Of a DNA stretch of 64,000 nucleotides, positions 2,813-41,649 are shown one piece after another. The notes under the pieces are model-generated. The model was given only the letters and a program-made list of their open reading frames with translations. It did not search any database and had not been told where the DNA came from. Origin of the DNA: Rickettsiales bacterium (GTDB lineage Bacteria > Pseudomonadota > Alphaproteobacteria > Rickettsiales > UBA1997); assembly GCA_017999675.1 (NCBI GenBank), contig JAGNLL010000003.1, forward strand, positions 74,071 to 138,070, written 5' to 3'. Both the position numbers and the translations under genes were made by a program. Numbering within the stretch: position 1 is the stretch's first letter; the number at the start of each line of letters is the position of its first letter.

Positions 2813-3832
2813 CTACGCAAACATTTTGGCAAAATTTCTTCTTTTGCGCTTTTTCCAAAAACCACGGTGGTAAGCGTCAGATGCCAAAAGAGGCACAACT
2901 GAAGTAGCTTCAGCAAAAACCATTTGTTCAAAAGTTGTGTCAACTTTGCCCCAAGAGCAGGCTTCTTTTAGAGTTGAAGAAGAGCAAGCGCCGTCGCGAG
3001 AATCGGCCACAGTGATTTGCACGGCGTATTTGTGCATGTCAGCTTCAATGCCTAAAATTTCGGCGCAAACAACGGTGTCTTGCACGAAATTTTTTGGCAC
3101 ACCACCACCAATCATTAGAAGACCAGTTGTGCCGGCTTTAATTTTGATGTCGGTTAATTCTCTGAAATCAGCAATTGAGTCCATCGTCATGTGCTTTTTT
3201 GGGTTTTTAACTTGGTGTAAAACCAAACCAAAACCAGCGGAAGAGTCGGTGAAAGCTGGGCAGAAAATTGGCACATTGTGGTCGTAGGCTAGCTCGATTA
3301 GAGATTCTTTTTTCTTAGCGTGCTTTTTCAAATATTTTCCCATTTCCCAGATAAACTCACGAGACGAGTAAGGACGGGATTCTAGAGAGTTGGCAATTTT
3401 GTAAATTGTGCCGTCGCAGTTTTGTAAATCTTTTTCATCGATGTAAGTGTCGTAAATTCTGTCGATGTAATTTTTGCGTAAGAATTGGTCATCAATGAAT
3501 GGCGTGCCTTGGTAATGTTTGAAACCAAGAGCTTCAAAGAAATCCATGTCTACAATTGAGGCGCCTGTCGCAACAATTGCATCAACCATGCCGTATTTAA
3601 CCATGTCGGCGTAAACTTTCATACAGCCACCAGCAGAGGTTGAACCAGCCAAAGTTAAGATCACTGAGCAATCTTTGTCTTTTTGCATCATGTTGAAAAT
3701 CTCAGTCGCACGAGCCAAATCACGCGAGGTGAAAGACATGTGATCCATTTGATCAATGATTGGGCGAGCATCAAATGAAGTGATGTCAATATGCTTAACT
3801 GGGCGCTTTAAAAGCTCTTTTTTAGTGACCAT
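2813..3832 (-). CDS. deoxyhypusine synthase-like protein (possible homospermidine synthase-type enzyme)
   Basis: DHS-family motifs LAGSTSAGG, VDAIVATGASIVDMD and GGGVPKNF are present. The catalytic-lysine context EACSWGKVD resembles eukaryotic EAVSWGK. Confidence 0.8.
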   Translation of the reverse strand: MVTKKELLKRPVKHIDITSFDARPIIDQMDHMSFTSRDLARATEIFNMMQKDKDCSVILTLAGSTSAGGCMKVYADMVKYGMVDAIVATGASIVDMDFFEALGFKHYQGTPFIDDQFLRKNYIDRIYDTYIDEKDLQNCDGTIYKIANSLESRPYSSREFIWEMGKYLKKHAKKKESLIELAYDHNVPIFCPAFTDSSAGFGLVLHQVKNPKKHMTMDSIADFRELTDIKIKAGTTGLLMIGGGVPKNFVQDTVVCAEILGIEADMHKYAVQITVADSRDGACSSSTLKEACSWGKVDTTFEQMVFAEATSVVPLLASDAYHRGFWKKRKRRNFAKMFA

Positions 3833-3861
3833 TTTTTGTAAATAAGTTAGTTGGGGAAAAT

Positions 3862-5178
3862 TTATTCAGCAGCTGTTGCTAGCTCTTCTTGCTCTTCTTC
3901 TTCGCGATACATTGAAACCATCGGCTCGTCTGTCACTTCAATTTGAAGATTTTTGTTAAATCCGTTAAATTCGGTTCTAATGCTACGAGAGTAAGCACCA
4001 AGCTGACCAATTTCGATGTAGTCACCTTCAGCGATATTTTCTGGCAAGTAGAATGGACCCTTCATTGAATCAAGTGAATCGCAGGTTGGGCCGTAGAATC
4101 CGAAAGGAATATTGTTGGAAGAAAGCGCTTCTGAATTTTTAACGCGCAGCGCTTTTGACGGATAAATAAAGCCCGGAAAACCAGCGTCAAATAAGCCACC
4201 GTAAGTGCCGTCGTTTAAGTAAAGCATGTTCTTTTTTCTCGCTTCAACACGCACCAAAAGTGAACCAGATTCTGCAACTAAAGCGCGACCCGGTTCGCAC
4301 CAGATGCGACATTTTTTGTCGAGACCCATTTGGTTAATTGCGTCAAAAATTTCGTCAAAATAGGCGCTTAAATTTGGCGGAGTCATGCCTGGGTAAGAAG
4401 AAGGAAAGCCACCGCCAACGTCAATTACGTCTGGTTTAACTTTTGCTTGCTCGAGAAGCTCTTTGGTAATGTTAAGTGCGTTGCGGTATTCTGTAGGCTC
4501 CATGCATTGCGAACCAACGTGAAAGCAAATGCCAAATCTTTTTGCTGAAGCTCTAACTTTGCGCAAAAGTGAAACTGATTCAGAAGGCAAAATTCCAAAT
4601 TTGCCCGACAAATCGATTGCCGCATGCGAATTAGCAATTGCTAGGCGCACGTGCAAACCAAGGTCTTTAGCGCCATTGGTCACTTCAAGAATCTTTTTTA
4701 ATTCGTCAGATGAATCGAGTGAAAAATCGCGAATGCCGTGGTTAAAATAAGCGTCAAAAATTGCTTCGCGTGATTTTACTGGGTGCATAAAATACATGCT
4801 CACCGCGTCACCGAAAAGATCTTTGATTAGTTTAACTTCGGCCATTGAAGCAACGTCAAAATGCTTAACGCCAGCTGCAAACAAGTGTTTTAAAACTGTT
4901 GAGTCGGGATTGCTTTTTACCGAATAAAGGATGTCGCTGGCAAATTTTGGAGTCTGAAAATTTTCTAAGAAAAATTTTGCTGCGCGCTTAATTGAATTTG
5001 GGCGAATGAAATAAACCGGAATTGACGGCTTTAATTCTGCAACTGTACTTTCAACTGTGGAGATTTTTTTAGCTGATCTTTTGGGAGATTGCTTTGGTCC
5101 CTTGGTGGAATTTTGTGCGTTAAACAAATAGTGAATTTTCGAGTTTGAGACTCGACCCTGTTCCAGCTCTTTTCCCAT
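3862..5178 (-). CDS. group IV PLP-dependent decarboxylase, eukaryote-type ornithine decarboxylase-like
   Basis: YSVKSN (PLP lysine), GGGFP, CEPGRALVAE and GPTCDSLD motifs. The N-terminal ~45 aa are K/S-rich, so the true start is uncertain. Confidence 0.8.
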   Translation of the reverse strand: MGKELEQGRVSNSKIHYLFNAQNSTKGPKQSPKRSAKKISTVESTVAELKPSIPVYFIRPNSIKRAAKFFLENFQTPKFASDILYSVKSNPDSTVLKHLFAAGVKHFDVASMAEVKLIKDLFGDAVSMYFMHPVKSREAIFDAYFNHGIRDFSLDSSDELKKILEVTNGAKDLGLHVRLAIANSHAAIDLSGKFGILPSESVSLLRKVRASAKRFGICFHVGSQCMEPTEYRNALNITKELLEQAKVKPDVIDVGGGFPSSYPGMTPPNLSAYFDEIFDAINQMGLDKKCRIWCEPGRALVAESGSLLVRVEARKKNMLYLNDGTYGGLFDAGFPGFIYPSKALRVKNSEALSSNNIPFGFYGPTCDSLDSMKGPFYLPENIAEGDYIEIGQLGAYSRSIRTEFNGFNKNLQIEVTDEPMVSMYREEEEQEELATAAE

Positions 5179-6323: not shown

Positions 6324-7262
6324 TTATGACTGTGCCTTGATTAGATGTTTAAAAATTTCTTCAAGATCGGGCTGCTTGGTTGAGATGTCTTTGATCTGAA
6401 TTTTGCTATCAGAAATTGTGTGGAGAATTTTTGCCACCGCAATTTTTTGTGGATCGTAAGTAATCGAGATTTTGTCCGCGGTCAAAAGTTTGGTTTGCAG
6501 CTCAGGAAACAACGCCAGCATTTTAGCGCCTTCAGCATCAGCGCAGCTAATAATTAGCTCTTTGCTTGAGAGCACATTCATCAAATTTTCTTTTTTGTCG
6601 CAGGCGATTACTTGGCCTTGATTGATAATGGCAATTTCGTCGCAAAGCTCTTCAGCTTCTTCGAGGTAATGCGTAGTCAACAGAATAGTGGTTCCCGCCT
6701 GATTTAATTTTTTTACGTAATTCCAAAGTTGGTTGCGCAACTCAACGTCAACGCCTGCGGTTGGCTCATCTAGCACTAAAATTTCTGGATTGTGAACCAA
6801 GGCTTTTGCCACAAGAAGTCTGCGGCGCATTCCGCCAGAAAGGCTACGAGGAGTTGACAGTGCTTTGTCTTTCAAACCCAGCGCTTCAATAATTTCGTCG
6901 GTACGGCGCTTAGATTTTTCAATTCCGTAATATCCAGCGTAAATTTCTAAGGTTTCGCGAACGTTGAAAAATGGGTCAATTACAAGCTCTTGCGGCACGA
7001 TGCCAATTTTAAATTTTGCCGCTTGTTGGTTTTGGTCGATGTCGATGCCGCCAATTTTTACCGAGCCAGAAGTTTTGTTGGTAAGGCCCGCAAGAATATT
7101 AATGATCGTCGATTTACCCGCACCGTTTGGGCCTAGAAGACCGAAGAACGAACCTTTTTTAATCTGCAAATCAATCGACTTTAGCGCGATTTTCTCCGCC
7201 GATTTTTTCGATTTTTTGTAAGTTTTGCTAAGGTTCGAAATTTCAATTGCGAGGCTGGTCAT
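6324..7262 (-). CDS. ABC transporter ATP-binding protein (ABC-2/DrrA-YadG type) with no adjacent permease
   Basis: Walker A GPNGAGKST, signature LSGGMRRR, Walker B LVLDEPTAG. It abuts pyrB (0-nt gap) and grxD (1-nt gap). Confidence 0.85.
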   Translation of the reverse strand: MTSLAIEISNLSKTYKKSKKSAEKIALKSIDLQIKKGSFFGLLGPNGAGKSTIINILAGLTNKTSGSVKIGGIDIDQNQQAAKFKIGIVPQELVIDPFFNVRETLEIYAGYYGIEKSKRRTDEIIEALGLKDKALSTPRSLSGGMRRRLLVAKALVHNPEILVLDEPTAGVDVELRNQLWNYVKKLNQAGTTILLTTHYLEEAEELCDEIAIINQGQVIACDKKENLMNVLSSKELIISCADAEGAKMLALFPELQTKLLTADKISITYDPQKIAVAKILHTISDSKIQIKDISTKQPDLEEIFKHLIKAQS

Positions 7263-7263
7263 G

Positions 7264-7584
7264 CTAGATGATCCCTTTTTCTTTCAGCATTTCTTGCAAC
7301 TCGCCAGACTGCGCCATTTCTTTTACGATGTCGCATCCACCAATGAACTCACCTTTGATGTAAAGCTGTGGAATTGTAGGCCAGTCAGAAAATTCTTTGA
7401 TGCCTTGCCTAACCTCTGGATCGCGCAAAACGTCAACATCAAGAAAATCTACACCCGCTGTTTTTAAAACATGCGAAACCGCTGCAGAAAAGCCGCATTG
7501 CGGAAAATCTTTGGTGCCTTTCATGTAAAGCACTACGTCGTTGGTTGAAACTGTTTCTTGGATTTTTTCTAAAATGTTAGTCAT
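7264..7584 (-). CDS. grxD: monothiol glutaredoxin (Grx4 family)
   Basis: CGFS active site in the context PQCGFS; the WPTIPQLYIKGEFIGG motif. Confidence 0.92.
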   Translation of the reverse strand: MTNILEKIQETVSTNDVVLYMKGTKDFPQCGFSAAVSHVLKTAGVDFLDVDVLRDPEVRQGIKEFSDWPTIPQLYIKGEFIGGCDIVKEMAQSGELQEMLKEKGII

Positions 7585-7601
7585 TGGAATTAAAAAATTA
7601 A

Positions 7602-7829
7602 TTAAGCTGAGGTCTTAAGCTGCATGGCGTGAAGCACGTCGCCGAGAATTTCTTTTAGAGCATTGTTCACCAATTTATGTTGCTCAACTCTGGTTTTACC
7701 AGCAAAAATTTTGTCGGTGATTTTAACGCTGTAGTGATTGTCGTCAGCAACTAAAGCCACCACTTCAATTTGCGCCTCTGGAAAATTTTCATGCAAAAGT
7801 TTTTCTAAATCTTTTTGAGCGATTGGCAT
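7602..7829 (-). CDS. bolA: BolA family protein
   Basis: BolA-like sequence sits directly upstream of grxD, the usual pairing. The track ORF begins at a TTG inside the pnp terminator T-tract, so I prefer the ATG at 7829 (MPIAQKDLEKL...). Confidence 0.75.
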   Translation of the reverse strand: MPIAQKDLEKLLHENFPEAQIEVVALVADDNHYSVKITDKIFAGKTRVEQHKLVNNALKEILGDVLHAMQLKTSA

Positions 7830-7854
7830 TTTTTTTAAAAATTTAAATTTTAGC

Positions 7855-7884
7855 AAAAAAAAGGCGGACCAAACGGCCCGCCTT
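7855..7884 (-). terminator. rho-independent terminator downstream of pnp
   Basis: Stem AGGCGGACC / GGCCCGCCT. The mismatch is a G-U wobble only on the minus-strand RNA, and a T-run follows on the minus strand. Confidence 0.7.
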
Positions 7885-7909
7885 TTTAATAGCGAATTGC
7901 GGTTAAAGA

Positions 7910-10225
7910 CTAACCGAAAAACCCGCGACGTTTTTTTGGAGCAGCGTCTCTGTCACCACGATCATCGCGGTCACGAGGAGGACGACGATCATCGCCACGA
8001 CGGTCATCACGATCACGAGGACGTCTGTCATCGCGATCACGACTTCCACCACCACGACGGTCGTCACGACCACCGCCAGATTCTCTTTCGTCAATCATTT
8101 GCGGTTTGTTTGGCAAGCGATCAGAAATGTCTTCGCCAGTTGCTTGATCAACGCAACGGTAGCTTAATTTTGGACGACCTTTTTTGTCGAAACCAATTAC
8201 TTTAACTTTAACGATGTCGCCTTCGTTGATTACGTCTTCAACAAAATCAACGCGATATTCAGCAAGTTCAGAAATGTGAATGAAACCATCGCGATTGTTA
8301 GAAATGCTAACGAAAGCGCCGGCATCAATAACTTTCACAACTGGACCTTCGTAAATGTCGCCGATTTCTGGTTCAAAAGTGATTTCGTGAATCATAGTAA
8401 CAGCTTTCTTGATTGAATCAGCGCTGTTAGAAGAAATTTTGATGGTACCGCTATCGTCAACATCAACAACCGCGCCAGATACTGCACAAATTTCTTTGAT
8501 TACAGCGCCGCGAGAGCCAATTACTTCACGAATTTTTTTCGGGTTAATAGTCAAAACTTCAACTTTAGGAACATTGTCATTTAGCTCAGTTCTAGCTTGC
8601 GGAACAGCTTCAACCATTTTGTCTAAAATGTGAAGTCTGCCAGCATTAGCTTGGTTAAGAGCTGCTGTCATGATGTCGGCAGTGATACCGTTGATTTTGA
8701 TATCCATCTGTAACGAGGTGATACCTTCTCTGGTTCCTGCAACTTTGAAATCCATGTCACCAAGGTGATCTTCGTCACCCAAGATGTCAGAAAGAATAAC
8801 GTAGTTAGCGCCTTCTTTAATCAATCCCATCGCGATTCCAGAAACTGGAGATTTGATTGGAACACCAGCATCCATCAAAGCGAGTGAGGTGCCGCAAACT
8901 GTTGCCATTGAAGACGAACCGTTTGATTCAGTGATTTCAGAAACCACGCGAGTTGCGTAAGAGAAGCTTTCAACCGATGGGAATACTGGGTTAATCGCAC
9001 GCCAAGCCAATTTGCCGTGGCCAATTTCGCGACGTCCAGGTGGTTTCAACTGACCAGTTTCACCAACCGAGTAAGGAGGGAAATTGTAGTGCAGCATGAA
9101 ATTTTCTTTCGACATGCCTGGGTCTAAGTTTTCGATCATTTGCTCGTCTCTGCTTGAGCCAAGAGTTGCAACAACCAAAGCTTGAGTTTCGCCACGAGTG
9201 AAAAGTGCAGAGCCGTGAACTTGTGGCAATAAGCCAGTTTCGATTGCAATTTGTCTAACTTGATCAGTTTTACGTCCATCAATTCTAATACCGTTTTTCA
9301 AAACGTCGTTGCGCACGATTTCTTGAGAAAGGATTTTGAAAAGCGATTTAACTTTGTTGCCAGTGACGCCGGCTTCTTCGTTAACAAACTTAGCTTTAAC
9401 ATCAGTGTTGATTTGATCTAAATCAGCAACACGAGCTTGTTTGTCTTGTTTTTTGTAGGCGTTGATTAAGCGATCAGCGATGAAATCGTTGATTTCATTT
9501 TTAAGAGCTGAGTGATCTTCTTGCTTAACTTCGATTTTCTTTTTACCAGCTTCTGCTTTTAGCTCTTCAATCATTTTAATGACTGGTTGGAAAGCTTTGT
9601 GACCGAAGTCTAAAGCTGCCAACATTTCAGTTTCGGTAAGTTCTTTTGCTTCAGATTCGATCATCAAAACTGAGCTTTCGGTTCCCGCAACTACAAGATC
9701 CAAACGGCTTTGTTTAAGTTCTTCAGCATTTGGGTTTAGAACAAATTCACCGTTAATGTAACCAACACGAGCGCCGCCAACTGGCTCAGTTAAAGGAGCT
9801 TCAGAAATTGCCAAAGCAGCAGAAGCGGCAATCAAGGCCACAACGTCTGGAGTGCAAGTTGGATCGTAAGAAAGAACGGTACAAATCACGTTAACTTCGT
9901 TGTAGAAGTTAGCTGGGAAAAGTGGTCTGATCGGGCGATCGATCAAACGAGAAGTTAGAGTAGCAGCGTCTGACGGCTTAGCTTCACGCTTAAAAAATCC
10001 ACCTGGGATTTTTCCAGCAGCGTAGAATTTTTCTAGGTAGTGAACAGTTAGTGGGAAGAAATCTGCATTTTCAGCAGCTTTGCTTGCAACGGTTACTGCA
10101 CAAAGAATTGTAGTATTGCCGTATTTTGCGAGGATAGATCCGCTAGCTTGGCGAGCGATTTTACCGGTTTCAAGAGATAAGGTTTTGCCGTTCCAGACAA
10201 TTTCTTTTTTTACAACATTAAACAT
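7910..10225 (-). CDS. pnp: polyribonucleotide nucleotidyltransferase (PNPase) with an Arg/Asp-rich C-terminal extension
   Basis: Two RNase PH domains, a KH domain and an S1 domain are recognisable along the full length. The 771-aa protein ends with ~60 aa of RD/RG repeats. Confidence 0.95.
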   Translation of the reverse strand: MFNVVKKEIVWNGKTLSLETGKIARQASGSILAKYGNTTILCAVTVASKAAENADFFPLTVHYLEKFYAAGKIPGGFFKREAKPSDAATLTSRLIDRPIRPLFPANFYNEVNVICTVLSYDPTCTPDVVALIAASAALAISEAPLTEPVGGARVGYINGEFVLNPNAEELKQSRLDLVVAGTESSVLMIESEAKELTETEMLAALDFGHKAFQPVIKMIEELKAEAGKKKIEVKQEDHSALKNEINDFIADRLINAYKKQDKQARVADLDQINTDVKAKFVNEEAGVTGNKVKSLFKILSQEIVRNDVLKNGIRIDGRKTDQVRQIAIETGLLPQVHGSALFTRGETQALVVATLGSSRDEQMIENLDPGMSKENFMLHYNFPPYSVGETGQLKPPGRREIGHGKLAWRAINPVFPSVESFSYATRVVSEITESNGSSSMATVCGTSLALMDAGVPIKSPVSGIAMGLIKEGANYVILSDILGDEDHLGDMDFKVAGTREGITSLQMDIKINGITADIMTAALNQANAGRLHILDKMVEAVPQARTELNDNVPKVEVLTINPKKIREVIGSRGAVIKEICAVSGAVVDVDDSGTIKISSNSADSIKKAVTMIHEITFEPEIGDIYEGPVVKVIDAGAFVSISNNRDGFIHISELAEYRVDFVEDVINEGDIVKVKVIGFDKKGRPKLSYRCVDQATGEDISDRLPNKPQMIDERESGGGRDDRRGGGSRDRDDRRPRDRDDRRGDDRRPPRDRDDRGDRDAAPKKRRGFFG

Positions 10226-14583: not shown

Positions 14584-15618
14584 TTAAAGATTCACCAAAT
14601 CGGCATTTTCAAAATGCTCGCGCAACCGATTTGGATCAACCGATTTTGCGTCAAGTTTTGCACTGGCAATGTGAAACAAAGCGTCGCCCTTATTTACCAA
14701 AGGCAGCAACGTCATTCCAACAATCACGCCATTTTCGTGAGCTTTGACCAAAGTTTTGTGATCACCAAATGGGTTAGAAATTTCGCCAATCACGTCGCCT
14801 TTTTTAACCATTTTTCCCAACTTTTGGCGCGGCATGTGAATGCCGCTTTTTGGCGCTCTAAGCCACGAACTTGAGCGCGCCACAAAAACTTCTTTCTTGG
14901 TTTTTTTTGGCTGCAGCAACTTAATCATGCCGATCTCGTGCATTACATTTAAAATGCCATTCACACCAACTTTAATGCCCTCTTCGTCAAAGCGCAGGGC
15001 CTCACCAGCTTCAAATAAAATCATTGGAATTTTCGCCCGCGCCACCGCTTCGCGCAGCGAGCCGTCACGAAAATTTGAACCAATCACAACCGGCGCACCA
15101 AAGGCTTTTGCAAGCTCAAGGGTAAAAGGATCAGAAATATCAGCGCGAATTTGTGGGTAGTTGGTGCGGTGAAAAGCGCCCGTGTGCAAATCAATGCCAA
15201 AGTCCGATTTCAGTGCAATTTCCTGCATAAATTTGTAGGCAAGTTGCGAGGCGAGTGAACCGTTTTTAATTCCCGGAAAGCAACGATTCAAATCGCGACG
15301 ATCTGGCAAATAGCGCGTTCGGTCGTTAAAGCCAAAAATATTTACAATCGGAATTACAATTAACGTGCCGCAAATATTTTTTAACGCTTTTGACGCCAAC
15401 AAGCGCCTCACAATTTCAATGCCGTTAATTTCGTCGCCGTGAATTGCTGACGAAATAAAAAATGTCGGCCCGTCTTTCTTGCCCCGAATTACTTCCACCG
15501 GCATTTTCACGTCGGTAAAATCGTAAATGCTGCCCATGTCAATGTTAATGCGCAGCGTTTGGCCGCGCTTAATTTCAACGCCGTCGATTGTAAATTTTGG
15601 GTCAGCTTTTTTGATCAT
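14584..15618 (-). CDS. succinylglutamate desuccinylase/aspartoacylase (AstE/AspA, M14-like zinc hydrolase) family protein
   Basis: Zinc-ligand context SAIHGDEINGIE, then DLNRCFPG and DLHTG motifs; 344 aa. Confidence 0.7.
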   Translation of the reverse strand: MIKKADPKFTIDGVEIKRGQTLRINIDMGSIYDFTDVKMPVEVIRGKKDGPTFFISSAIHGDEINGIEIVRRLLASKALKNICGTLIVIPIVNIFGFNDRTRYLPDRRDLNRCFPGIKNGSLASQLAYKFMQEIALKSDFGIDLHTGAFHRTNYPQIRADISDPFTLELAKAFGAPVVIGSNFRDGSLREAVARAKIPMILFEAGEALRFDEEGIKVGVNGILNVMHEIGMIKLLQPKKTKKEVFVARSSSWLRAPKSGIHMPRQKLGKMVKKGDVIGEISNPFGDHKTLVKAHENGVIVGMTLLPLVNKGDALFHIASAKLDAKSVDPNRLREHFENADLVNL

Positions 15619-16589
15619 TTTTTCTTATTTAAAAATGCGTAAGACAAAATTTTGTAGCACAATTTTGCCGAAAGAAAATCGCAAGAATGCAGCGCTTTTA
15701 CGGGAGCCAATTCCACCACATCCGCACCAACAATATTGGCAATTTTGCTCGCTTCACGAATAATGTCGAGCGCGTCTTCCCACATTACACCACCCGGTTC
15801 TGGCGTGCCAGTTGCTTGCATTAAACTCGAATCAAAACCATCCAAATCAAAAGTTAAAAACACTGGGCGGCCTTTAAGCGGCGCCACAATTTTTTTGGCG
15901 TCCCAGCTTCTGCGATCCTTACCAAAATGCATGTGAATGCGGTGACGATTGGCTTCTAAAAACGGAATTTCGCTGGCCGAAATATTGCGAATGCCACAAG
16001 AAATTAACGTTGAAATCGGATGATCCATCACGCGACGAAGCGCCGCGGCGTGCGAATAATGTTCCCCTCCAAAACCGTCACGCAAATCGGCGTGCGCGTC
16101 AAAATGCAAAATTGCTAGGTCGGGATATTTTTTCACAAAAGGGCGAATCGAGCCCGCGGTGATTGAATGCTCACCACCAAGAATTAACGGAAATTTTCCC
16201 GCATCCAAAATTGTTTCAGTAATTTTTTCGAGCTGATTCAAAGATTTTGGAACTGAGCTGTAGTCAATTTTTGGCGCCGCCATTGTTGCCACGCCGTATT
16301 GCCTAAAAGGCTCGCACCAAAATTCTTCGTCAAAAAGCTCAACTTGTTGCGACGCGTTAATGATTGCTTTCGGTCCGTTTTTTGTACCACCACCGTAGCT
16401 CACTGATTTTTCCAAACCAAATGGCACAACCACAACTTTCGCGTCTTCCGGCGATTTTAAATATTTGTCTTCAACCCCCAAAAATCCGTTTTTTTGCGCC
16501 ACTAATTTTAGGCTAGAAAACACCGATTTTGCTGAAGATTTTTTTGCCGTTGAAATTTTTTTCACCGCCACAGTTTTTGTTTTTTTCAT
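15615..16589 (-). CDS. ureohydrolase family protein (agmatinase-like)
   Basis: Mn-binding motifs GGEHS, HFDAHADLR and TFDLDGFD. The stop overlaps the downstream start by 4 nt (ATGA). The N-terminal ~35 aa are K-rich. Confidence 0.8.
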   Translation of the reverse strand: MKKTKTVAVKKISTAKKSSAKSVFSSLKLVAQKNGFLGVEDKYLKSPEDAKVVVVPFGLEKSVSYGGGTKNGPKAIINASQQVELFDEEFWCEPFRQYGVATMAAPKIDYSSVPKSLNQLEKITETILDAGKFPLILGGEHSITAGSIRPFVKKYPDLAILHFDAHADLRDGFGGEHYSHAAALRRVMDHPISTLISCGIRNISASEIPFLEANRHRIHMHFGKDRRSWDAKKIVAPLKGRPVFLTFDLDGFDSSLMQATGTPEPGGVMWEDALDIIREASKIANIVGADVVELAPVKALHSCDFLSAKLCYKILSYAFLNKKK

Positions 16590-30422: not shown

Positions 30423-31709
30423 CTAATTTGAGTGAGATTTATTTTTTGCAATTCTGTCTTCCATCTCGCCACGGAAATTTTTGATCAAACCCTGCACCGG
30501 CCAAGCTGCAGCATCACCCAAAGCGCAAATGGTGTGGCCTTCGATTTGTTTGGTTAGGTTGTAAAGTTGATCAATTTCTTTCACTTCGGCTTTGCCTTCA
30601 ACCATGCGATCCATAATGCGCATTAGCCAGCCAGTGCCTTCGCGGCATGGCGTGCATTGTCCGCAAGATTCGTGTTTGTAAAAATGTGAAAGTCTTGCGA
30701 TTGCAGCGATAACGTCAGTTGATTTATCCATCACGATAACACCAGCAGTACCAAGGCCTGAGCCCGCTGCTTTTAATGAATCAAAATCCATCAACACAGT
30801 GTCGCAAACATCTTTTTTCAGCATTGGCACTGACGATCCACCAGGAATTACAGCCAAGAGATTATCCCAGCCGCCGCGCACGCCGCCGGCATGTTTTTCG
30901 ATTAATTCTTTTAGAGGAATTCCCATTTCTTCTTCAACGTTGCACGGCTTGTTGACGTGACCAGAAATACAAAAAACTTTTGTGCCGGTATTTTTTTCGC
31001 GGCCCAAACCTGCGAACCACGCAGCTCCGCGACGTAAAATTTCTGGAACAACTGCGATTGATTCAACGTTGTTGATTACAGTTGGGCAGCCGTAAAGGCC
31101 GATAAGTGCCGGAAATGGTGGCTTCAAACGAGGTTGACCTTTGTTGCCTTCTAAACTTTCAAGCAAAGCAGTTTCTTCGCCGCAAATGTAAGCGCCGGCT
31201 CCGCGGTGCACAAAAATGTCCAAATCCCAGCCAGAATTGCAGGCGTTTTTTCCGATTAATTTTGCGTCGTAAGCTTCGTCAATTGCACGCTGCAACGCGA
31301 CAGCCTCGTTGTAATATTCGCCACGAACGTAGATGTAGCAAGTGTTGGCGTTAATTGCACGCGAAGCAAGTAAACAACCCTCTAAAAGTTTGTGAGGATC
31401 ATTGCGCAAAATGTCGCGATCTTTGCAAGTGCCTGGCTCAGATTCGTCAGCGTTGATCACCAAATAATGCGGCTTGCCTTCTTTGGGGTCAGATTTTTTT
31501 GGTACAAATGACCATTTCATTCCGGTAGGAAAACCAGCGCCACCGCGGCCGCGCAGCACAGAATCTTTAACTTGCTGAATCAACCATTCAGAGCCTTGAT
31601 CAAGAAAATTTTTGGTTTGCGACCAGTCGCCTCTTTTTTTTGCAGCGTCTAAATTTGCAGATTGAAAACCGTAAAGATTGGTAAAAATTTTATCCGATTC
31701 TTTGAGCAT
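30423..31709 (-). CDS. nuoF: NADH-quinone oxidoreductase subunit F
   Basis: [10 protein letters not shown] (FMN/NADH site) and [12 protein letters not shown] (4Fe-4S). I prefer the start at ATG 31709 ([14 protein letters not shown]). No other nuo genes are adjacent. Confidence 0.93.
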
Positions 31710-31892
31710 TTTTTTTGGAAAAATTGTGTGTGAAATGAGGGGCGCGGCAAATCGTAAATTTGCTTTTAGTAAAATCAAGAAAGCAGCCTTGTGGGCAAAA
31801 AAATTGCACAACTTTTTTTTACAAAAACTTTTTTGCAGACTAAAGATTGATTAAAAAACTTGCGCAAATAAAAACTTTTTCGATCTCATTTC

Positions 31893-33479
31893 TTGATAAA
31901 ATCCCTCCAAAATTTAACACAAAATTCCGTGCCTAATTTCCAAAATCTCTTGAAAAAATTTTTGGTGCTGTCGCTGCTTTCAATGCAGTTTTCTTGCTAC
32001 CAAGGCAGGTTAGATCCTTTTGACACGCAAAATGGGCTGACTCGTGGCGAGATTAAAGACAGCTTGATGAAAGCTCCAAAGAGAAAGGGTGAAAAAAACC
32101 AAGGCGCTGAAAAAAACGAAGCGCCAATTCCAACGGTTTCAAAACTAATTATGACGCCACCGCCCCCAGTAATTGGTGGCAGCAAAACGCTTTCTTTTTC
32201 GGTGACCGATCAGGTGCCTTTGAAAGATGTTTTAATTGAGCTTGGCCGCGTTGCACAAATTGATGTCGATCTTGATCCCGGCATTTCTGGTGGCGTAATT
32301 ATTAACGCTAAAAATCGTCCTTTTAAAGAAGTGATTGATCGCATTGCAACTCTTGGGGGCCTTCGCTACAGCTATCAAAACGGCGTTTTGCGTTTTGAGC
32401 GCGACACGCCTTACATGAAAAATTACTTCGTTGACTATTTAATTGACGGCCAGCTTTGGAGTGACGTTGAAACCAACATTAATGCTATTTTAGCTAACTC
32501 AACTCCAGCTGCCGCATCTTCTGAAGAAGGCGCTGCCGCTCCGGCGGGTGCTTCGTCAATTTCGTCAAATAAATCTGCGGGAATTCTTTCGGTTTTTGCA
32601 ACCGGCAAAGAGCACGAAAGTATCGAGGGCTATTTGGCAGATGTTGAGCAAGCAGCCTCAGCACAGGTTTTGATTGAGGCTAAGGTTGTTGAGGTTTCTT
32701 TGAGTGAAGAATACAAAACCGGCATTGATTGGTCTACGGTTGGCAGCAAAAATAGCTTCTCGGCCTCAAATGGCTTTACTGCAGGTGGTGGAATTACCTA
32801 CATAGCAAGCGAGTTATTTAACTCTGATCTTGCTGCCTCGGTTAGTGCGCTTGAAACCTTTGGCACCACGCGAACAATCTCTAGTCCGCGCATTCACGCC
32901 ATTAACAACCAGAAGGCCTCTCTAAACTTTGGTGACAAGTTGGTTTATTTTAAAATTGATTCAAACCAAAGCACAACCTCTGCAACAACTGGGGAGCCAT
33001 TGACTAGCAGCAATATTACTACCACCAAGCAGGAAGAAAATGTCGGCGTGCAGCTAGATATTACGCCGTCAATTAACGTGCGCACCGGGCAAATTGTAAT
33101 GAGCGTGAAGCCACAATTGTCGGTTCACAGCTCTGACGTGCAAGATCCTGGTGTTGAAGCAGCAAACTTGGTGCCGGTAATTAACACTAGAACCATTAGC
33201 ACCATTGCCAAAATTAAAAGCGGCAATGTTTTGGTCATTGGTGGTTTAATGAAGGACACCACAACCAACTCTGATTCAGGCGTGCCGTTTTTAAATCGTA
33301 TTCCGGTTTTGGGTTGGTTCTTCAAATCAGTTTCAAAAAGCACCACCCTTGTTGAAACCGTAATTTTAATTAAGGCAACAATCATCAAGTCTGGAGTCTC
33401 TTCGGTTGGCAAAGTTGATCGCGACTTCCAGCAAAAATTTGACACCAACCGTCGCCGCTTTTTTGGCACTGAGCAATAA
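31893..33479 (+). CDS. secretin-family outer-membrane lipoprotein (MshL/PilN/BfpB-like)
   Basis: C-terminal secretin domain (SSPRIHAINNQKASL, VPVINTRTISTIAKIKSGNVLVIGGL, GVPFLNRIPVLGWFF). The lipobox is LLSMQFSC. An alternative TTG start at 31950 would give the canonical signal MKKFLVLSLLSMQFSC. Confidence 0.8.
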   Translation: MIKSLQNLTQNSVPNFQNLLKKFLVLSLLSMQFSCYQGRLDPFDTQNGLTRGEIKDSLMKAPKRKGEKNQGAEKNEAPIPTVSKLIMTPPPPVIGGSKTLSFSVTDQVPLKDVLIELGRVAQIDVDLDPGISGGVIINAKNRPFKEVIDRIATLGGLRYSYQNGVLRFERDTPYMKNYFVDYLIDGQLWSDVETNINAILANSTPAAASSEEGAAAPAGASSISSNKSAGILSVFATGKEHESIEGYLADVEQAASAQVLIEAKVVEVSLSEEYKTGIDWSTVGSKNSFSASNGFTAGGGITYIASELFNSDLAASVSALETFGTTRTISSPRIHAINNQKASLNFGDKLVYFKIDSNQSTTSATTGEPLTSSNITTTKQEENVGVQLDITPSINVRTGQIVMSVKPQLSVHSSDVQDPGVEAANLVPVINTRTISTIAKIKSGNVLVIGGLMKDTTTNSDSGVPFLNRIPVLGWFFKSVSKSTTLVETVILIKATIIKSGVSSVGKVDRDFQQKFDTNRRRFFGTEQ

Positions 33480-33482
33480 ATC

Positions 33483-34244
33483 ATGAAATCAATTCTAAAA
33501 TACATCCTTCTGGCCGGTATTAGAGATCGTCTCTATATCGGCCTTTTTGTTACTTTGGCGGCGTCTTTTTCGCTGTCGATTTTTCTTGGCTCCACCTCTT
33601 TCGTTGAAGCGCAGCAAACAACTGCAGCCTACATTGCAGGCTCCTCTCGCGCCATTCTTGCCATTGGCATGATCCTTTTCGTTTGCCTCAGCGTTGCGCG
33701 CGCATTCGAAAACAAAGAAGTCGAATTCATCATTTCAAAATCAATCTCGCGCGAGCAGTTTATTTTAAGCTACGTAATCGGCTTTTTCGTTGCGGCATTT
33801 TTAATTTTTATTCCACTCGTCACTGCAATTTTAATCGTCACCAAAGCCAATAAATTTGGCCTGCTAATTTGGTCGGCAACTTTGCTTTCTGAGCTAATGA
33901 TCATCATTTCTTTTTCGCTGCTGGCCTCGCTAATTTTAAAAAATTCTTTCTCGGCAATCATGGCTTCGTTTGGCTTCTACATTATCTCGCGTCTGATGGG
34001 GGTTTTCGTTTTGGCAATCAACTTGCCGCAAGACATTGCGCAAGCCAAAAACCAAGCTTTGGGCGTTAGTTTAAAATTTCTCTCTGCACTTTTTCCACGC
34101 CTCGATCTTTTCACTCAAAGCGATTGGCTTTCTTACGGCGTTAGCGATTCAAGCAACCTAAAAATCATTCTAATCCAATCGCTAATCTACATTCCGCTCA
34201 TGATTTTCATGGCTTTTCACGATTTCAAAAAGAAGCAATTCTAG
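33483..34244 (+). CDS. ABC-2 family permease-like membrane protein (NosY/GldF-like)
   Basis: About 6 predicted TM helices. FENKEVEFIISKSISREQFILSYVIG resembles the E-x-E-x-G-T-x-E-L-L-x-x-P-x-S-R motif of ABC-2 permeases. It starts 3 nt after the secretin stop. Confidence 0.55.
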   Translation: MKSILKYILLAGIRDRLYIGLFVTLAASFSLSIFLGSTSFVEAQQTTAAYIAGSSRAILAIGMILFVCLSVARAFENKEVEFIISKSISREQFILSYVIGFFVAAFLIFIPLVTAILIVTKANKFGLLIWSATLLSELMIIISFSLLASLILKNSFSAIMASFGFYIISRLMGVFVLAINLPQDIAQAKNQALGVSLKFLSALFPRLDLFTQSDWLSYGVSDSSNLKIILIQSLIYIPLMIFMAFHDFKKKQF

Positions 34245-34245
34245 C

Positions 34246-35004
34246 ATGAAGGCTCGCCTCTTTTTTCATCTTTATTCGCACAAAATTTTCTTTTGGCTTT
34301 TTGTCGCTACCTTCGCGTGCCAACTTTTTTTCTGGAAACAAACCGAGCATCTAAAGCCCCGTTTTGACATTGTGCCGCCTGCTCCAAATCAATATTTAGT
34401 CTCTGCTCTTTCACTGGGCGACAAAGAATTTTTATTCCGCATTTTAGCCACGCGCCTGCAAAATTCGGGCGACGTTTTTGCCGGATTTTTGTCGCTAAAA
34501 GATTACGATTACGCCCGCGTGCACCAATGGATGACAACACTCGACACCCTCAACGCCAAATCAAATTTTGTCCCCGCGATTGCCGCTTACTACTATTCGC
34601 AAACCCAAAGAGCCGAAGACGTGCACCACGTGGTAGACTATCTCGAAGAGCATTCAAAAAAAGACATCGACGCCAATTGGTGGTGGCTTTTTCAAGCAAC
34701 TTACATCGCCAAAAAAAACATGGGCGACATGAATCGCGCCCTCGAAATTGCCTACCTGCTTAGCAAAAATAATTCGCCCACCGCGCCATTTTGGACCAAA
34801 CAACTGCCGGCATTTTTGCACGAAGAAATGGGCGACGGCTGCATGGCTTTTGCGGTGATTGAAAGCCTCATCAAAGAAAGCGAAAGCGGTGCGCGCCAAA
34901 TCAAACCCGAAGAGCTAAACTTCATGCGCCACTTCATTAATGACCGCTTGGCAAAATTGAAAAAACAAAAATTTGATCCGCGCCAATGCAGCAAAAAATT
35001 CTAA
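34246..35004 (+). CDS. hypothetical protein, N-terminal membrane anchor plus helical (TPR-like?) domain
   Basis: A 252-aa ORF starting 1 nt after the upstream stop, with one N-terminal hydrophobic helix (IFFWLFVATFACQLFFW). I recognise no motif. Confidence 0.55.
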   Translation: MKARLFFHLYSHKIFFWLFVATFACQLFFWKQTEHLKPRFDIVPPAPNQYLVSALSLGDKEFLFRILATRLQNSGDVFAGFLSLKDYDYARVHQWMTTLDTLNAKSNFVPAIAAYYYSQTQRAEDVHHVVDYLEEHSKKDIDANWWWLFQATYIAKKNMGDMNRALEIAYLLSKNNSPTAPFWTKQLPAFLHEEMGDGCMAFAVIESLIKESESGARQIKPEELNFMRHFINDRLAKLKKQKFDPRQCSKKF

Positions 35005-35846
35005 AAAAAGAGCTCGCCAAAATCGTTGCAAATGCCCTGCAAGAAGACTGCGCTTTTAACGACGTCACCTCCGATTTAACCATCGCAAAAAACAGTCTTG
35101 TAGCCTTTGAAATTAAGGCGCGCGAAGAAATCATTTTTTGTGGCAAAGACATAGTCTCAGAAGTTTTTTTGCAGTTAAAAAAATCGCCAAAATTTAAAAA
35201 TTCGAAACTCGATTTAAAAATTTTAGCAAAAGATGGCGCTCGCATCAGCCCAGCAAAATCAATCGCTCGCGGTCAAGGCGACGCCAAATTAATTTTTGCC
35301 GCCGAAAGAGTTATTCTAAATTTAATTCAGCATTTAAGCGGTGTGGCAACGCTTACGCAAAAATTTGCGCAAGAACTGGCTAACAAAAAAATCAAAATTT
35401 TAGACACGCGAAAAACTCTACCGGGCCTGCGCGCCCTAGAAAAATATGCGGTTGTGGCTGGTGGCGGCAAAAACCACCGCTTCAACTTAAGCGACATGAT
35501 TTTGATTAAAGACAATCACATTGCCGCAGCGGGTAGCGTTGCAAATGCAATTGAAGCGGCAAAAAGCGGCGCCAAAAAATTAAAAATCGAAGTTGAGTGC
35601 GACACGCCAGACCAAGTTGCCGAGGCAGTAAAATCAGGGCCTCACATCATCATGCTCGACAACATGAAAATTTCTGAAATCAAAAAATCGATTAAACTAA
35701 TCAACAAAAAAGCGCAGATTGAAATTTCTGGCGGGGTGAATTTGCAAAATATTAAAAAATATTCGGCACTAGAAATTGATTTTATTTCAGTTGGATCTCT
35801 CACGCATTCTGCTCGCGCCGTCGACATTGGGTTGGACATTATTTAA
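34986..35846 (+). CDS. nadC: nicotinate-nucleotide pyrophosphorylase (quinolinate phosphoribosyltransferase)
   Basis: LDTRKTLPGLRALEKYAVVAGGGKNHRFNLSD and IKDNHI motifs. Confidence 0.92.
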   Translation: MQQKILKKELAKIVANALQEDCAFNDVTSDLTIAKNSLVAFEIKAREEIIFCGKDIVSEVFLQLKKSPKFKNSKLDLKILAKDGARISPAKSIARGQGDAKLIFAAERVILNLIQHLSGVATLTQKFAQELANKKIKILDTRKTLPGLRALEKYAVVAGGGKNHRFNLSDMILIKDNHIAAAGSVANAIEAAKSGAKKLKIEVECDTPDQVAEAVKSGPHIIMLDNMKISEIKKSIKLINKKAQIEISGGVNLQNIKKYSALEIDFISVGSLTHSARAVDIGLDII

Positions 35847-35939
35847 AAAAGATATTCTCCAGCGTGGAGAATATGTTAAACCCACCAGCCCTTGGGCCTG
35901 AAGGCTCTGCAAAAATCTCGAAAAATAAAAAGCCACAAA

Positions 35940-37718
35940 ATGCCAAGAAATCACACCGCTTTTTCCTTCCTTTTACACTCGATTAAGCCCTTCAAATTTT
36001 ACGTTGGCTTGCATCTTTTTGTGGTGCTTTACAACGCAATTGATCTTTCGCTTTGGCCCTATTTGACAAAAAATTTAGTCGACACTTTGTCGAATGCTCC
36101 GCGTGAACAAGTGATTTCGCAAGTTTGGCCAGCGGCGCTGCTGTTGATTATTTTTACAATTTTGCCCGGATTAATTTGGCGACTTTCTGATTTTTCTTGG
36201 ATGAATTTGACGCCATTAATGAAGAGAAAAATCACGGTCGAAACAATGGATTACGCCACGCAACACAGCACAATTTTTTTTCAAAATAATTTTTCTGGCT
36301 CTCTCGCTCACAAAGTGCGCGACCTTGCGGGCTGCACTCCGCAGATGCTTGCGAAAATTCTCTACAGTTTTTTAAACGTAATTTTAAGCCTCGCAATTGC
36401 CTTTGGCGCACTGTTTTTTGTGCACAAAGTTTTTGCTTTTGCGCTAATTATTTGGGCGGCAATTTTTATTTTAATGGCTCTAAAAGCCGCAAAAATTGTT
36501 GACCCACTTTCAGTTGCCGCCGCCGACCAACAAACCAAAAACATGGGCAACTTGGTCGATGTTTTAAGCAACATTGCCAACGTGCGTCTGTTCAATGGCA
36601 GGGGATTTGAAACCAGCAAAATCAAGGCTTTGCAAGATGATTACACCAAGCTTTCGAAGCGTAGAAATATTTTTCTAATCAAATTTTACATTGTTCACGC
36701 ACTCACTTTTGCAGCCTATTTTATTTTTTGCATTGTAGCTCTAATCAAGCTTTACGCTGAGGGTTTGGTGACGCTTGGCGACTTCTTAATGCTCTTTACA
36801 ATCAACAACTGGATCATCCATTTAATGTGGATGGCGGCGAGTGAAATGAACGTGTTTTTGGAAGATGTCGGCACCATTAATCAAGCTTTGTCGATTGTTA
36901 ACCAGCCCTTGCAGATTAAGGACGCAGAGCCTGCTCAAAACTTAAGCGTGAAGCGCGGCGAAATCACTTTTGACAATGTTTCATTTTCTTACCAAAAAAA
37001 TTCTGAGCCGCTTTTTTTCAACAAAAATCTAACAATTTTAGCCGGACAAAAAGTTGGATTAGTTGGCCATTCTGGAGGAGGTAAAACCACTTTTGTAAAT
37101 TTAATTTTACGCTTTTTTGACGTGAATTCCGGCCGCATTTTAATTGACCAACAAGACATCTCAAAGGTGACGCAAGAGTCACTCCGCACCGCAATTGGCA
37201 TGATTCCGCAAGACCCTTCACTTTTTCATCGCAGCTTAAAAGAAAATATTTCTTACGGAATTTCTGCAGAAAATTTCGAAGAAATAATCGCCGCTGCAAA
37301 AAAAGCGCACGCCCACAATTTTATTGAAGCGCTGCCCGAAAAATACGATTCAGTTGTTGGCGAGCGTGGCGTGAAGCTTTCGGGCGGGCAGCGCCAACGC
37401 ATTGCAATCGCGCGCGCTTTTTTAAAAAACGCGCCGATTTTAATTTTGGATGAAGCAACCAGCCAGCTCGATTCAATCACCGAAAATTTAATTCAAGATG
37501 CGCTGCAAAACTTAATGCAAAACAAAACCACAATCGTCATCGCGCACCGTCTGTCAACGCTGGCGCACATGGATCGCATTTTAGTTTTTGATTTGGGAAA
37601 AATAATCGAAGACGGCTCGCATCAAGAGTTGCTTGCTTTAAACGGCACTTACAAAAAACTTTGGGACGCGCAAGTTGGCGGCTTTTTAATTGAAAATTTT
37701 GACGAAAAAAATGACTAA
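35940..37718 (+). CDS. ABC exporter, fused permease-ATPase (MsbA/type 1 exporter family)
   Basis: Six N-terminal TM helices, Walker A GHSGGGKTT, signature LSGGQRQR, Walker B LILDEATS. I prefer the ATG at 35940. Confidence 0.88.
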   Translation: MPRNHTAFSFLLHSIKPFKFYVGLHLFVVLYNAIDLSLWPYLTKNLVDTLSNAPREQVISQVWPAALLLIIFTILPGLIWRLSDFSWMNLTPLMKRKITVETMDYATQHSTIFFQNNFSGSLAHKVRDLAGCTPQMLAKILYSFLNVILSLAIAFGALFFVHKVFAFALIIWAAIFILMALKAAKIVDPLSVAAADQQTKNMGNLVDVLSNIANVRLFNGRGFETSKIKALQDDYTKLSKRRNIFLIKFYIVHALTFAAYFIFCIVALIKLYAEGLVTLGDFLMLFTINNWIIHLMWMAASEMNVFLEDVGTINQALSIVNQPLQIKDAEPAQNLSVKRGEITFDNVSFSYQKNSEPLFFNKNLTILAGQKVGLVGHSGGGKTTFVNLILRFFDVNSGRILIDQQDISKVTQESLRTAIGMIPQDPSLFHRSLKENISYGISAENFEEIIAAAKKAHAHNFIEALPEKYDSVVGERGVKLSGGQRQRIAIARAFLKNAPILILDEATSQLDSITENLIQDALQNLMQNKTTIVIAHRLSTLAHMDRILVFDLGKIIEDGSHQELLALNGTYKKLWDAQVGGFLIENFDEKND

Positions 37719-40463: not shown

Positions 40464-41568
40464 TTATTTTGGAAGAGTAGTCTCCGTTAAAGCCGCTTTA
40501 ATGAAGCCTTCGAGCTCTCCATCTAAAACGGCTTGGATGTTTCCTGTTTCGTAATCAGTGCGCAAATCTTTCACCATTTGGTAGGGATGCAGCACGTAAG
40601 AGCGAATTTGGTGGCCCCAGCTATTGTCGGTTTTTTCGCTTTCGCTTTTGGCCAAAACTTCTTTTTGTTTTTTCATTTCAAGGTCGAAGAGGCGCGATTT
40701 TAGCATCTTCATGCATTCGGCGCGATTTCTGATTTGCGAGCGGTCGTTTTGGCATTGCACGACAATGTTGGTTGGCAGGTGAGTCATTCTAACTGCCGAA
40801 TCGGTGGTGTTTACAGATTGCCCGCCGGGGCCGCTTGAGCGAAAAACGTCAATGCGCAAATCTTTTTCCTGCAAATCAATTTCAATGGTGTCGTCAATTT
40901 CGGGGTAAACCCAAACTGAGGTAAAACTGGTTTGGCGTTTGTCGTTGGCGTTAAATGGCGAAATGCGAACCAGCCTGTGCACGCCTGATTCCATCTTCAT
41001 CCAACCGTAGGCGAAGTGGCCCGAAATTTTTAGAGTTGCCGAGCGAATTCCCGCCTCGTCGCCCTCAAGCAAATTGATTATTTCAACCTTAAATTTTTTC
41101 GATGTGGCGAAGCGTTCGTACATGCGAAGAAGCATTGAGCCAAAATCGCAAGAGTCGGTTCCACCCGCACCCGCGTTGATGTCGAGGAAACAGTTGTTGC
41201 TGTCAACTTCGCCAGAAAATAGGCATTCAACTTCAAAAGTGTCGGCGGTTTTTTTCAAAACTCGTAGGGTTTTTTCAATGTCTGAAATAAGCTGCGCATC
41301 GCCTTCTAGCTTGGCTAAATCGAAATATTCGCGATTGTCTTTTAAGCCATTTTCAATCGCTAAAAAGGCGTTGAGGTTTCTTTCTAAATCAGATTTTTCT
41401 TTGAGAATTTTTTGGGCGGAAACTTGGTTATTCCACAATTCTGGGTCTTGCGACTGCTGGTTTAGATCAACTAGTTTTTCTTGCAGAATTTCTGGTTCAA
41501 AGACACCTCTTAATCAATGCCAGAGAGGTCGCGATCTGGCTGATCAAATTTTCAATTTCGGCGCTCAT
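40464..41568 (-). CDS. prfB: peptide chain release factor 2, requiring a programmed +1 frameshift
   Basis: Frame 0 from ATG 41568 gives MSAEIENLISQIATSLALIKRCL, then TGA. The +1 frame continues EPEILQEKLVDLNQQSQDPELWNN... into the track ORF, which carries the SPF and GGQ motifs (SGPGGQSVN). Confidence 0.93.
41497..41513 (-). other. RF2 autoregulatory frameshift site
   Basis: The minus strand reads AAGAGG-TGT-CTT-TGA-A. An SD-like AGAGG lies 3 nt upstream of the slippery CTT followed by in-frame TGA. Confidence 0.9.
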
Positions 41569-41649
41569 GAGATAAAATATTGATGTTTTGGGGAGGCAAA
41601 TTTAGGGTCCAGAGACTCTTCCTTCCTTTAAAATTTTTTCTACAAAAAC

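Follow-up and report, generated by a model that had tools for sequence, protein, structure and literature searches.

A secretin gene with an ABC-2-like partner in a Rickettsiales genome: a likely dispersed part of a type IV pilus cluster

What does a secretin do in a chromosomal neighborhood that holds no other part of a pilus or secretion machine? This question is raised by three adjacent genes at positions 31893-35004 of a 64,000-nucleotide stretch of contig JAGNLL010000003.1 from a Rickettsiales bacterium (assembly GCA_017999675.1; the whole stretch is referred to as the window). They encode a secretin, a six-helix membrane protein (p2) and an anchored helical protein (p3). An earlier interpretation of this locus, made from the sequence alone and referred to as the sequence-only reading, regarded the secretin as an orphan and the trio as a minimal, stand-alone export route. 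Comparison with relatives points in another direction. The trio is likely the sub-operon for outer-membrane and accessory parts of a type IV pilus that resembles the mannose-sensitive hemagglutinin (MSH) and type IVa (T4a) systems, and the other genes of the machine would be scattered in a streamlined genome. In evolutionary terms, the secretin would then not be an orphan, and the trio would be the piece of a cluster that was kept together while the rest dispersed. The open reading frames (ORFs) are as follows.

31893-33479, + strand: secretin gene (ORF1), 528 residues counted from TTG
33483-34244, + strand: p2 gene (ORF2), 253 residues
34246-35004, + strand: p3 gene (ORF3), 252 residues

The three genes share one strand and are separated by 3 and 1 nucleotides, respectively, and the 3' end of the p3 gene overlaps the following nadC by 19 nucleotides, which confirms the operon-like packing noted earlier.

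The unit in distant relatives and in its own clade

The evidence that carries this interpretation comes from eight distant members of the p2 family (loci L083-L089 and L092), each examined with about 20 kb of surrounding DNA. Over their full length, the encoded proteins share 31-36% (secretin), 28-39% (p2) and 32-43% (p3) identity with those of the window. The secretin gene lies directly upstream of p2 in all eight loci, and a p3-like gene lies directly downstream in seven of them, six recognized by hmmsearch and the one in L092 by gene position and size only. In each of the eight, the secretin-p2(-p3) unit forms part of a cluster of type IV pilus genes. Its neighbors encode a Peptidase_A24 prepilin peptidase, N_methyl pilins, a canonical tetratricopeptide repeat (TPR) protein and one or two PilT/PilU-family ATPases (TIGR01420, 413-485 bits versus a cutoff of 319). 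The L083 cluster also encodes an AAA_22 ATPase, and L088 additionally features an assembly ATPase with MshEN and T2SSE domains (424 bits) as well as a T2SSF platform protein. No second secretin was found within the approximately 20 kb around each unit. L084, L086 and L092 share the gene order X-Y-Z-ABC ATPase-TPR-PilD-PilT-PilU-secretin-p2-p3-(AraC)-pilin, in which ABC stands for ATP-binding cassette; L083 has the same genes in rearranged form. The AraC-family regulator gene between p3 and the pilin gene is found in L083 (11496-12596), L088 (11522-12676) and L092 (11532-12602).

The ABC_tran ATPase encoded in L083, L084, L086 and L092 comprises 241-257 residues and is DrrA/GldA-like (134 bits on the GldA model, under its cutoff), and no membrane domain is encoded next to it. 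Conversely, p2 is the sole protein with an ABC-2 fold recognized in these clusters and has no adjacent nucleotide-binding domain (NBD). Three genes precede the cluster ATPase (L086 1-2766, L092 1-2710, L088 18375-20777, L083 18309-20768), which encode X (540-556 residues), Y (~210-230 residues) and Z (~205-275 residues). X consists of a cytoplasmic domain, one transmembrane (TM) helix and a periplasmic domain, Y of a TM helix and a coiled coil, and in Z a Pro-rich linker joins the signal peptide to a C-terminal domain. By their topology and their position in the cluster, X, Y and Z may be PilMN/PilO/PilP-like, an unconfirmed assignment for which Pfam gave no match and PDB profile searches nothing meaningful.

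Closer to the window, homologues of each of the three proteins number in the hundreds and stem from uncultured Alphaproteobacteria or from metagenome-assembled genomes (MAGs) labelled "Rickettsiales bacterium". A p2 scan of species-representative genomes yielded 79 loci, nearly all MAG-labelled and many from freshwater-lake series, and p2 is near full length in 77 of them. The complete arrangement secretin-p2-p3 is present in 50/77 loci (50/73 informative ones), secretin-p2 without adjacent p3 in 13/77 and p2-p3 without a directly adjacent secretin in 10/77, while 4/77 are cut by contig ends. Hence, the trio is conserved as neighbors in relatives, so that the second ground for refutation named in the sequence-only reading does not apply, and its conservation across the clade marks it as a real, selected unit. 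Within it, p2 is best conserved, with identities of 51-95% across the clade as compared to 41-90% for p3 and 44-83% for the secretin.

Pilus genes occur in this clade as well. At least 13 loci contain genes for unusually long pilins (296-334 residues) with a near-identical N-terminus (..AFSLIELSIVILI..), and the long pilin of L003 (17058-17948) scores above the N_methyl cutoff. In L019-L021, L023 and L029, a pilin gene replaces the secretin gene directly upstream of p2. A T2SSF platform protein (163 bits; GspF/PilC models) is encoded a few kb from secretin-p2 in L055 and L058, that of L055 scoring best on the GspF model (279.8 bits, under cutoff), and the contig that carries secretin-p2 in L067 also encodes a pilin and a PilD homologue. 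The L055 platform gene has only housekeeping genes around it, which shows that the pilus genes of this clade are truly scattered. As a further observation, the long pilin genes directly upstream of p2 in L023 are tandemly duplicated (7700-9891), and long pilin-like proteins are also encoded in L016, L031, L059 and L067. Type IV motility pili have been reported in basal aquatic Rickettsiales families (bioRxiv 10.1101/2023.01.31.526412), to which this MAG may belong.

The three proteins

Judged by its profile matches, ORF1 is a secretin of the MshL/PilQ/GspD superfamily, putatively of the lipoprotein type. Residues 319-499 (nucleotides 32847-33389) match the secretin domain PF00263 with 130.1 bits versus a cutoff of 27.5 (E = 7.9e-38), and an N0-like N-terminal domain is located at about residues 100-172. 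The top NCBIfam model is MshL (TIGR02519), whose equivalog cutoff of 250.2 bits is not reached (194.7 bits), which also holds for the L086 orthologue (214.9 bits). The GspD, PilQ, SctC and HofQ models rank after MshL, with the HofQ models aligning from residue 102. Among solved structures, GspD is the closest in sequence, pIV of phage f1 comes second, and PilQ is a further relative.

An N-terminal alignment of 120 homologues revealed short, basic and hydrophobic N-termini that end at a conserved Cys. This residue (C35 of the long ORF) follows the hydrophobic stretch in nearly all of the homologues, and in many it is located 22 residues from the start. The surrounding box reads [QLS][FSL]SC, which does not match the canonical L-[AS]-[GA]-C. 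The N-terminus thus resembles a lipoprotein signal that is lipobox-like though non-canonical; of the lipobox that the sequence-only reading proposed by comparison with MshL, PilN(R64) and BfpB, the conserved Cys behind a hydrophobic stretch stands. The true start of the gene is probably GTG 31929, as in the homologue P0006.

31929-31997, + strand: putative GTG start (31929) and signal peptide up to the lipobox-like QFSC, with the Cys codon at 31995-31997

The public call of this secretin (P0001, 498 residues) begins at the internal M31 just before the conserved Cys, and the signal peptide is thereby lost (31893-31985). Several homologues carry the same truncated gene call.

For p2, the fold is the main source of information. 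The AlphaFold2 (AF2) model (predicted local distance difference test score, pLDDT, 71.5) contains six long TM helices; TM2 and TM3 are separated by a short helix (residues 78-85), which lies between the long helices 44-76 and 87-120. Foldseek matched it to PmtD (6xjh; E = 5.2e-4, TM-score 0.59, probability 1.00) and to NosY (7o0y/7znq; TM-score 0.61-0.64, probability 1.00). At the sequence level, p2 reaches no Pfam gathering score (ABC2_membrane_3, 16.7 versus 31.6 bits), and a p2 profile found nothing among PDB sequences even at E = 10. In a set of 63 diverse family members, the Pfam matches were sub-threshold only and fell on ABC2_membrane_2 (n = 10), _4 (n = 9), _3 (n = 7) and _5 (n = 1); the sole match outside these families was DUF6297 in two members. 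Because no PDB sequence matches, the assignment builds on the fold together with the sub-threshold Pfam matches, from which p2 is predicted to be a six-TM protein with the membrane-domain fold of ABC-2 transporters (type V ABC exporters). The family encompasses 860 representatives at 50% identity, whose named members are Alphaproteobacteria or Rhodospirillaceae MAGs, and its label at the Joint Genome Institute (JGI) is NosY-type permease.

A charged motif provides a clue to the role of p2.

33705-33752, + strand: F-E-N-K-E-V-E-F-I-I-S-K-S-I-S-R, residues 75-90 of p2, in the cytoplasmic TM2-TM3 loop

Invariant columns in this stretch are E76, K78, E79, E81, F82, S85, K86, S89 and R90, the last of which is nearly invariant even across the wide p2 family. 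The motif occupies the position at which ABC-2 transporters dock their NBD via a coupling helix. Residues 75-90 may hence act as an NBD-coupling helix, and the conservation of this loop suggests that p2 still works with an NBD. No NBD gene is adjacent to p2 in the window.

In the AF2 model of the third protein, p3 (pLDDT 83), a single TM helix at the N-terminus (about residues 3-33) leads into a TPR-like domain that is helical throughout. Foldseek returned generic helical-repeat matches only (MamA, 14-3-3 and designed repeats) and no pilotin among them; the match to the MamA TPR domain has a probability of 0.99, but an E-value of ~0.03 and a TM-score of ~0.3-0.4. Neither Pfam nor NCBIfam gave a TPR match, and no NCBIfam model matches p2 or p3 at all. 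In an alignment of 40 close homologues, C199 and C248 are invariant, while a Cys inside the TM helix is not conserved. The two invariant residues suggest a periplasmic, disulfide-bonded domain. Taken together, the identities that had been proposed for the three proteins, namely a secretin, an ABC-2-type six-TM protein and a helical protein with a single anchor, are borne out by the profile matches, by AF2 and Foldseek, and by the AF2 model, respectively.

The surrounding window and an unpaired ATPase

Directly downstream of the trio lies nadC:

34986-35846, + strand: nadC, quinolinate phosphoribosyltransferase (QRPTase_N/C Pfam domains)

It is probably co-transcribed with p3. Most freshwater-clade loci also have nadC behind p3, which does not apply to the distant relatives; nadC is a syntenic neighbor and no functional part of the trio. 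In a scan of 31500-36200, promoter sites were no more numerous than in shuffled sequences, and terminator-like sites did not coincide with gene borders. Upstream, a divergently transcribed nuoF-like gene (Complex1_51K; 30423-31811, - strand) is located between ispDF and the secretin gene without other nuo genes alongside, and this lone placement beside the secretin is kept in most related loci.

Pfam families cover nearly all ORFs of at least 150 residues in the window, with ORF 41074-41583, which overlaps a called gene, left out. Apart from the trio, they are housekeeping genes, including priA, polyamine and arginine genes, those for polynucleotide phosphorylase (PNPase) and ATP synthase, clpPX, hemE, ispDF, nuoF, nadC, uvrA and bamA. 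Among these ORFs, Pfam detected no pilin, GspE/PilB ATPase, platform protein or prepilin peptidase, and a six-frame scan of the window found no prepilin motif. Given this coverage, the window bears out the earlier statement that pilus and type II secretion genes are absent nearby, as far as these 64 kb are concerned. The short sister contigs matched by the first and last proteins of the window contain no pilus genes either.

One gene of the window, 25 kb away, could nevertheless be of relevance for p2:

6324-7262, - strand: orphan ABC-2-type (DrrA/ABCA-like) ATPase (ABC_tran) with no membrane partner

This ATPase scores 262 bits on the DrrA model (TIGR01188) and 183 bits on the GldA model, under the cutoff in both cases, and its best PDB relatives are the NBDs of ABCA3/ABCA1 and 4yer. 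It was tried as an orthologue of the pilus-cluster ATPases and rejected, as it shares 25-30% identity with them versus 40-47% among the cluster ATPases themselves. Because of this low identity, its pairing with p2 is a guess, and the enzyme is only a candidate NBD for p2. It forms part of a head-to-tail row of a bolA-like gene, a monothiol glutaredoxin gene (grxD), the permease-less ATPase and argF (6324-7856, - strand). L030 has the same grxD-ATPase-argF order, and L052, whose sequence stops just past the ATPase, has grxD-ATPase.

Some further features of the window were observed. The ORFs 52722-56960 (+ strand, 1412 residues) and 61936-63591 (+ strand, 551 residues) match no Pfam family at E = 0.01; the former, downstream of bamA and corA, has a weak AAA_14 match only. 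PNPase (7910-10225, - strand) carries a C-terminal tail of ~70 residues past its S1 domain with Arg/Asp/Gly repeats (RDDRR...). A gene of the deoxyhypusine synthase family is situated beside one for an Orn/Arg/DAP decarboxylase (2813-5178, - strand), and an arginase-family gene is found at 15615-16589 (- strand). These genes may indicate a polyamine pathway of the homospermidine type in a small genome.

Possible function, alternatives and known systems

If the trio is indeed the outer-membrane and accessory part of a pilus machine, the secretin would serve as the outer-membrane channel for the pilus fiber, p2 would contribute the membrane domain to an ABC-2 (type V) transporter, and p3, anchored in the inner membrane, would be its partner in the periplasm with a TPR-like domain. 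Since the cluster ATPase lacks a membrane domain and p2 lacks an ATPase, the simplest model unites them in one transporter with p3 as the periplasmic partner. The ATPase gene follows the three genes of PilMN/PilO/PilP-like topology in the relatives and would be located elsewhere in this genome, with 6324-7262 as one candidate. Such an assembly could act as an accessory transporter for pilus biogenesis, for which PilGHI from Myxococcus xanthus sets a precedent. The operon pilA-pilG-pilH-pilI encodes the permease PilI, the ATPase PilH and the accessory factor PilG, and deletion mutants are devoid of pili (PMC3546991; PMC3724824, citing Wu et al. 1998). PilGHI is thought to act in pilin export across the inner membrane (PMC3546991, PMC3724824, PMC6060248). 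To the sequence-only reading, a secretin gated or fed by an ABC-2 transporter was not a familiar architecture; PilGHI is a known case of a pilus-associated ABC transporter (PMC3724824, PMC3546991). As p2 and p3 are fixed directly behind the secretin gene, the ABC module may be situated at the secretin end of the machine. There, p3 would reside in the periplasm and could link p2 to the secretin or to the pilins. The remaining pilus genes are presumably still present in this genome.

A more far-reaching version can be proposed tentatively and is rather doubtful. A p2 dimer, an ABC-2-type ATPase and p3 could form a dedicated, secretin-coupled module of an alphaproteobacterial type IV pilus and spend ATP on assembling or gating the secretin or on delivering pilins to it. 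This module, maybe recruited independently of PilGHI, would stay with the secretin in streamlined freshwater genomes as other pilus genes disperse and, in the extreme case, work with the secretin alone.

Several points weigh against the assignment to a pilus. The window itself contains no pilus gene, and a full pilus set in this organism is deduced from the sequences of relatives. Around 20% of the clade loci have a pil gene within 10 kb, which is near the chance expectation for scattered genes; the specific pilus signal lies in the repeated placement of such genes directly beside p2 and in the eight distant clusters. The ATPase of the window is, besides its distance in sequence, about 60 residues longer than the cluster ATPases. 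The parallels p2/PilI and p3/PilG are drawn by function and context only. Finally, L077-L081 (e.g. L078 9989-11484) contain divergent p2-p3 pairs (29-42% identity) surrounded by housekeeping genes only, with aroA and carA upstream and an isocitrate dehydrogenase gene downstream. No secretin or pil gene was found within 10 kb of these pairs, which may thus have a pilus-independent role.

These lone pairs also favor a first alternative, in which the secretin belongs to a pilus-like machine, while p2 and p3 form a functionally unrelated, ordinary ABC-2 module (NosY-like, for instance, or one for envelope or lipid maintenance) that is held in place by frozen synteny. The JGI family name would fit this scenario, as would the rigid synteny of the freshwater clade, in which nuoF, ispDF and nadC are conserved neighbors, too. 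It is nonetheless unlikely, because the adjacency to the secretin persists at 30-40% identity, where nuoF and nadC no longer adjoin, because no nos or other cargo genes are nearby, and because in at least five clade loci the position directly upstream of p2 is occupied by a pilin gene instead of the secretin gene.

The second alternative corresponds to the stand-alone route across the envelope, in which p3 and an ABC-2 transporter formed by p2, perhaps together with the ATPase 6324-7262, would feed a substrate to the secretin without any pilus or pseudopilus. It would account for the lack of pil or gsp genes in the 64 kb, for the extreme conservation of p2, for the presence of two orphans of matching class (p2 and the ATPase) and for a trio that remains contiguous while all else disperses. 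We regard it as quite improbable and the proposed orphan system as unsupported: each of the eight distant relatives has the unit within its type IV pilus cluster, with no other secretin seen there, and no secretin is known to function without a filament or a phage. This idea is further weakened by the clade of the window, in which contigs with the trio also carry genes for pilins, PilC and PilD. The explanation that had been named as its refutation, a displaced pilus secretin, is essentially shown in the relatives, though not in this exact genome.

A third alternative concerns the type of machine, which could be a competence (DNA-uptake) system or a type II-like pseudopilus with the trio as its HofQ/GspD-like end. 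Retention of pilus genes for the uptake of DNA is common among streamlined planktonic bacteria, the best PDB match of the secretin is GspD, and both the alignment of the HofQ models and the GspF-like platform protein of L055 would be in line with this option. Yet, it is very unlikely in light of the PilT/PilU retraction ATPases and long pilins encoded in the relatives' clusters, GspC, L and M families were not detected, and it would alter the use of the machine rather than the identity of the trio. A secretin of prophage or filamentous-phage origin, as the second-best PDB match might suggest, was rejected in view of the absence of phage genes nearby, the normal composition and the conserved chromosomal synteny.

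The assignment to a dispersed pilus cluster has several implications. Two unnamed families under all Pfam and NCBIfam thresholds, p2 and p3, gain a testable role, and a second, large set of pilus clusters with an ABC-2-fold protein emerges from uncultured bacteria that are mostly labelled Alphaproteobacteria. For annotation, it follows that a secretin which looks like an "orphan" in a streamlined genome can be a pilus part stranded by dispersal and not a new secretion system.

Among known systems, GldA-GldF-GldG from the gliding machinery of Bacteroidota is comparable in that an ABC-2 transporter of unknown substrate and an accessory protein are tied to a surface-motility machine. It differs in being part of a type IX secretion/gliding machine of another phylum that involves no secretin. 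NosY (of NosDFY) and PmtD (of PmtCD) share with p2 the six-TM fold and the E-x-x-E-x-E...S-R loop at the position of the coupling helix, whereas p2 lacks an adjacent NBD and occurs in the context of pilus clusters, not of nos or psm genes. The TPR pilotins and accessory proteins (PilF/PilW/Tgl, MshN, TadD) parallel p3 in its size of ~250 residues, its TPR-like soluble part and its location at a secretin locus. In contrast to them, p3 is TM-anchored and has no lipobox, and the pilus clusters already encode a separate canonical TPR protein.

The closest counterpart of the secretin is found in the MSH pilus (MSHA) system of Vibrio (mshIJKLMNEGF): MshL is the best model, the N-terminus of the secretin resembles the lipoprotein type, and the MshEN-domain ATPase, the TPR protein (MshN-like) and the AAA_22 ATPase (MshM-like) of the relatives have equivalents there. 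On the other hand, the secretin remains under the MshL cutoff, and PilT/PilU are present in the relatives' clusters. To our knowledge, the MSHA operon holds no ABC-2 or p3-like genes. These have their nearest parallel in PilGHI (MXAN_5782-5780), although the Myxococcus genes are contiguous after pilA, whereas p2-p3 follow the secretin and the ATPase gene is located after the PilP-like gene or far off. Common to both is a permease, an ATPase and an accessory factor encoded in a type IV pilus cluster, which correspond here to p2, the ABC-2-type ATPase and p3. The locus thereby bears on the old question of what some pilus machines require an ABC transporter for, a combination known from Myxococcus since 1998.

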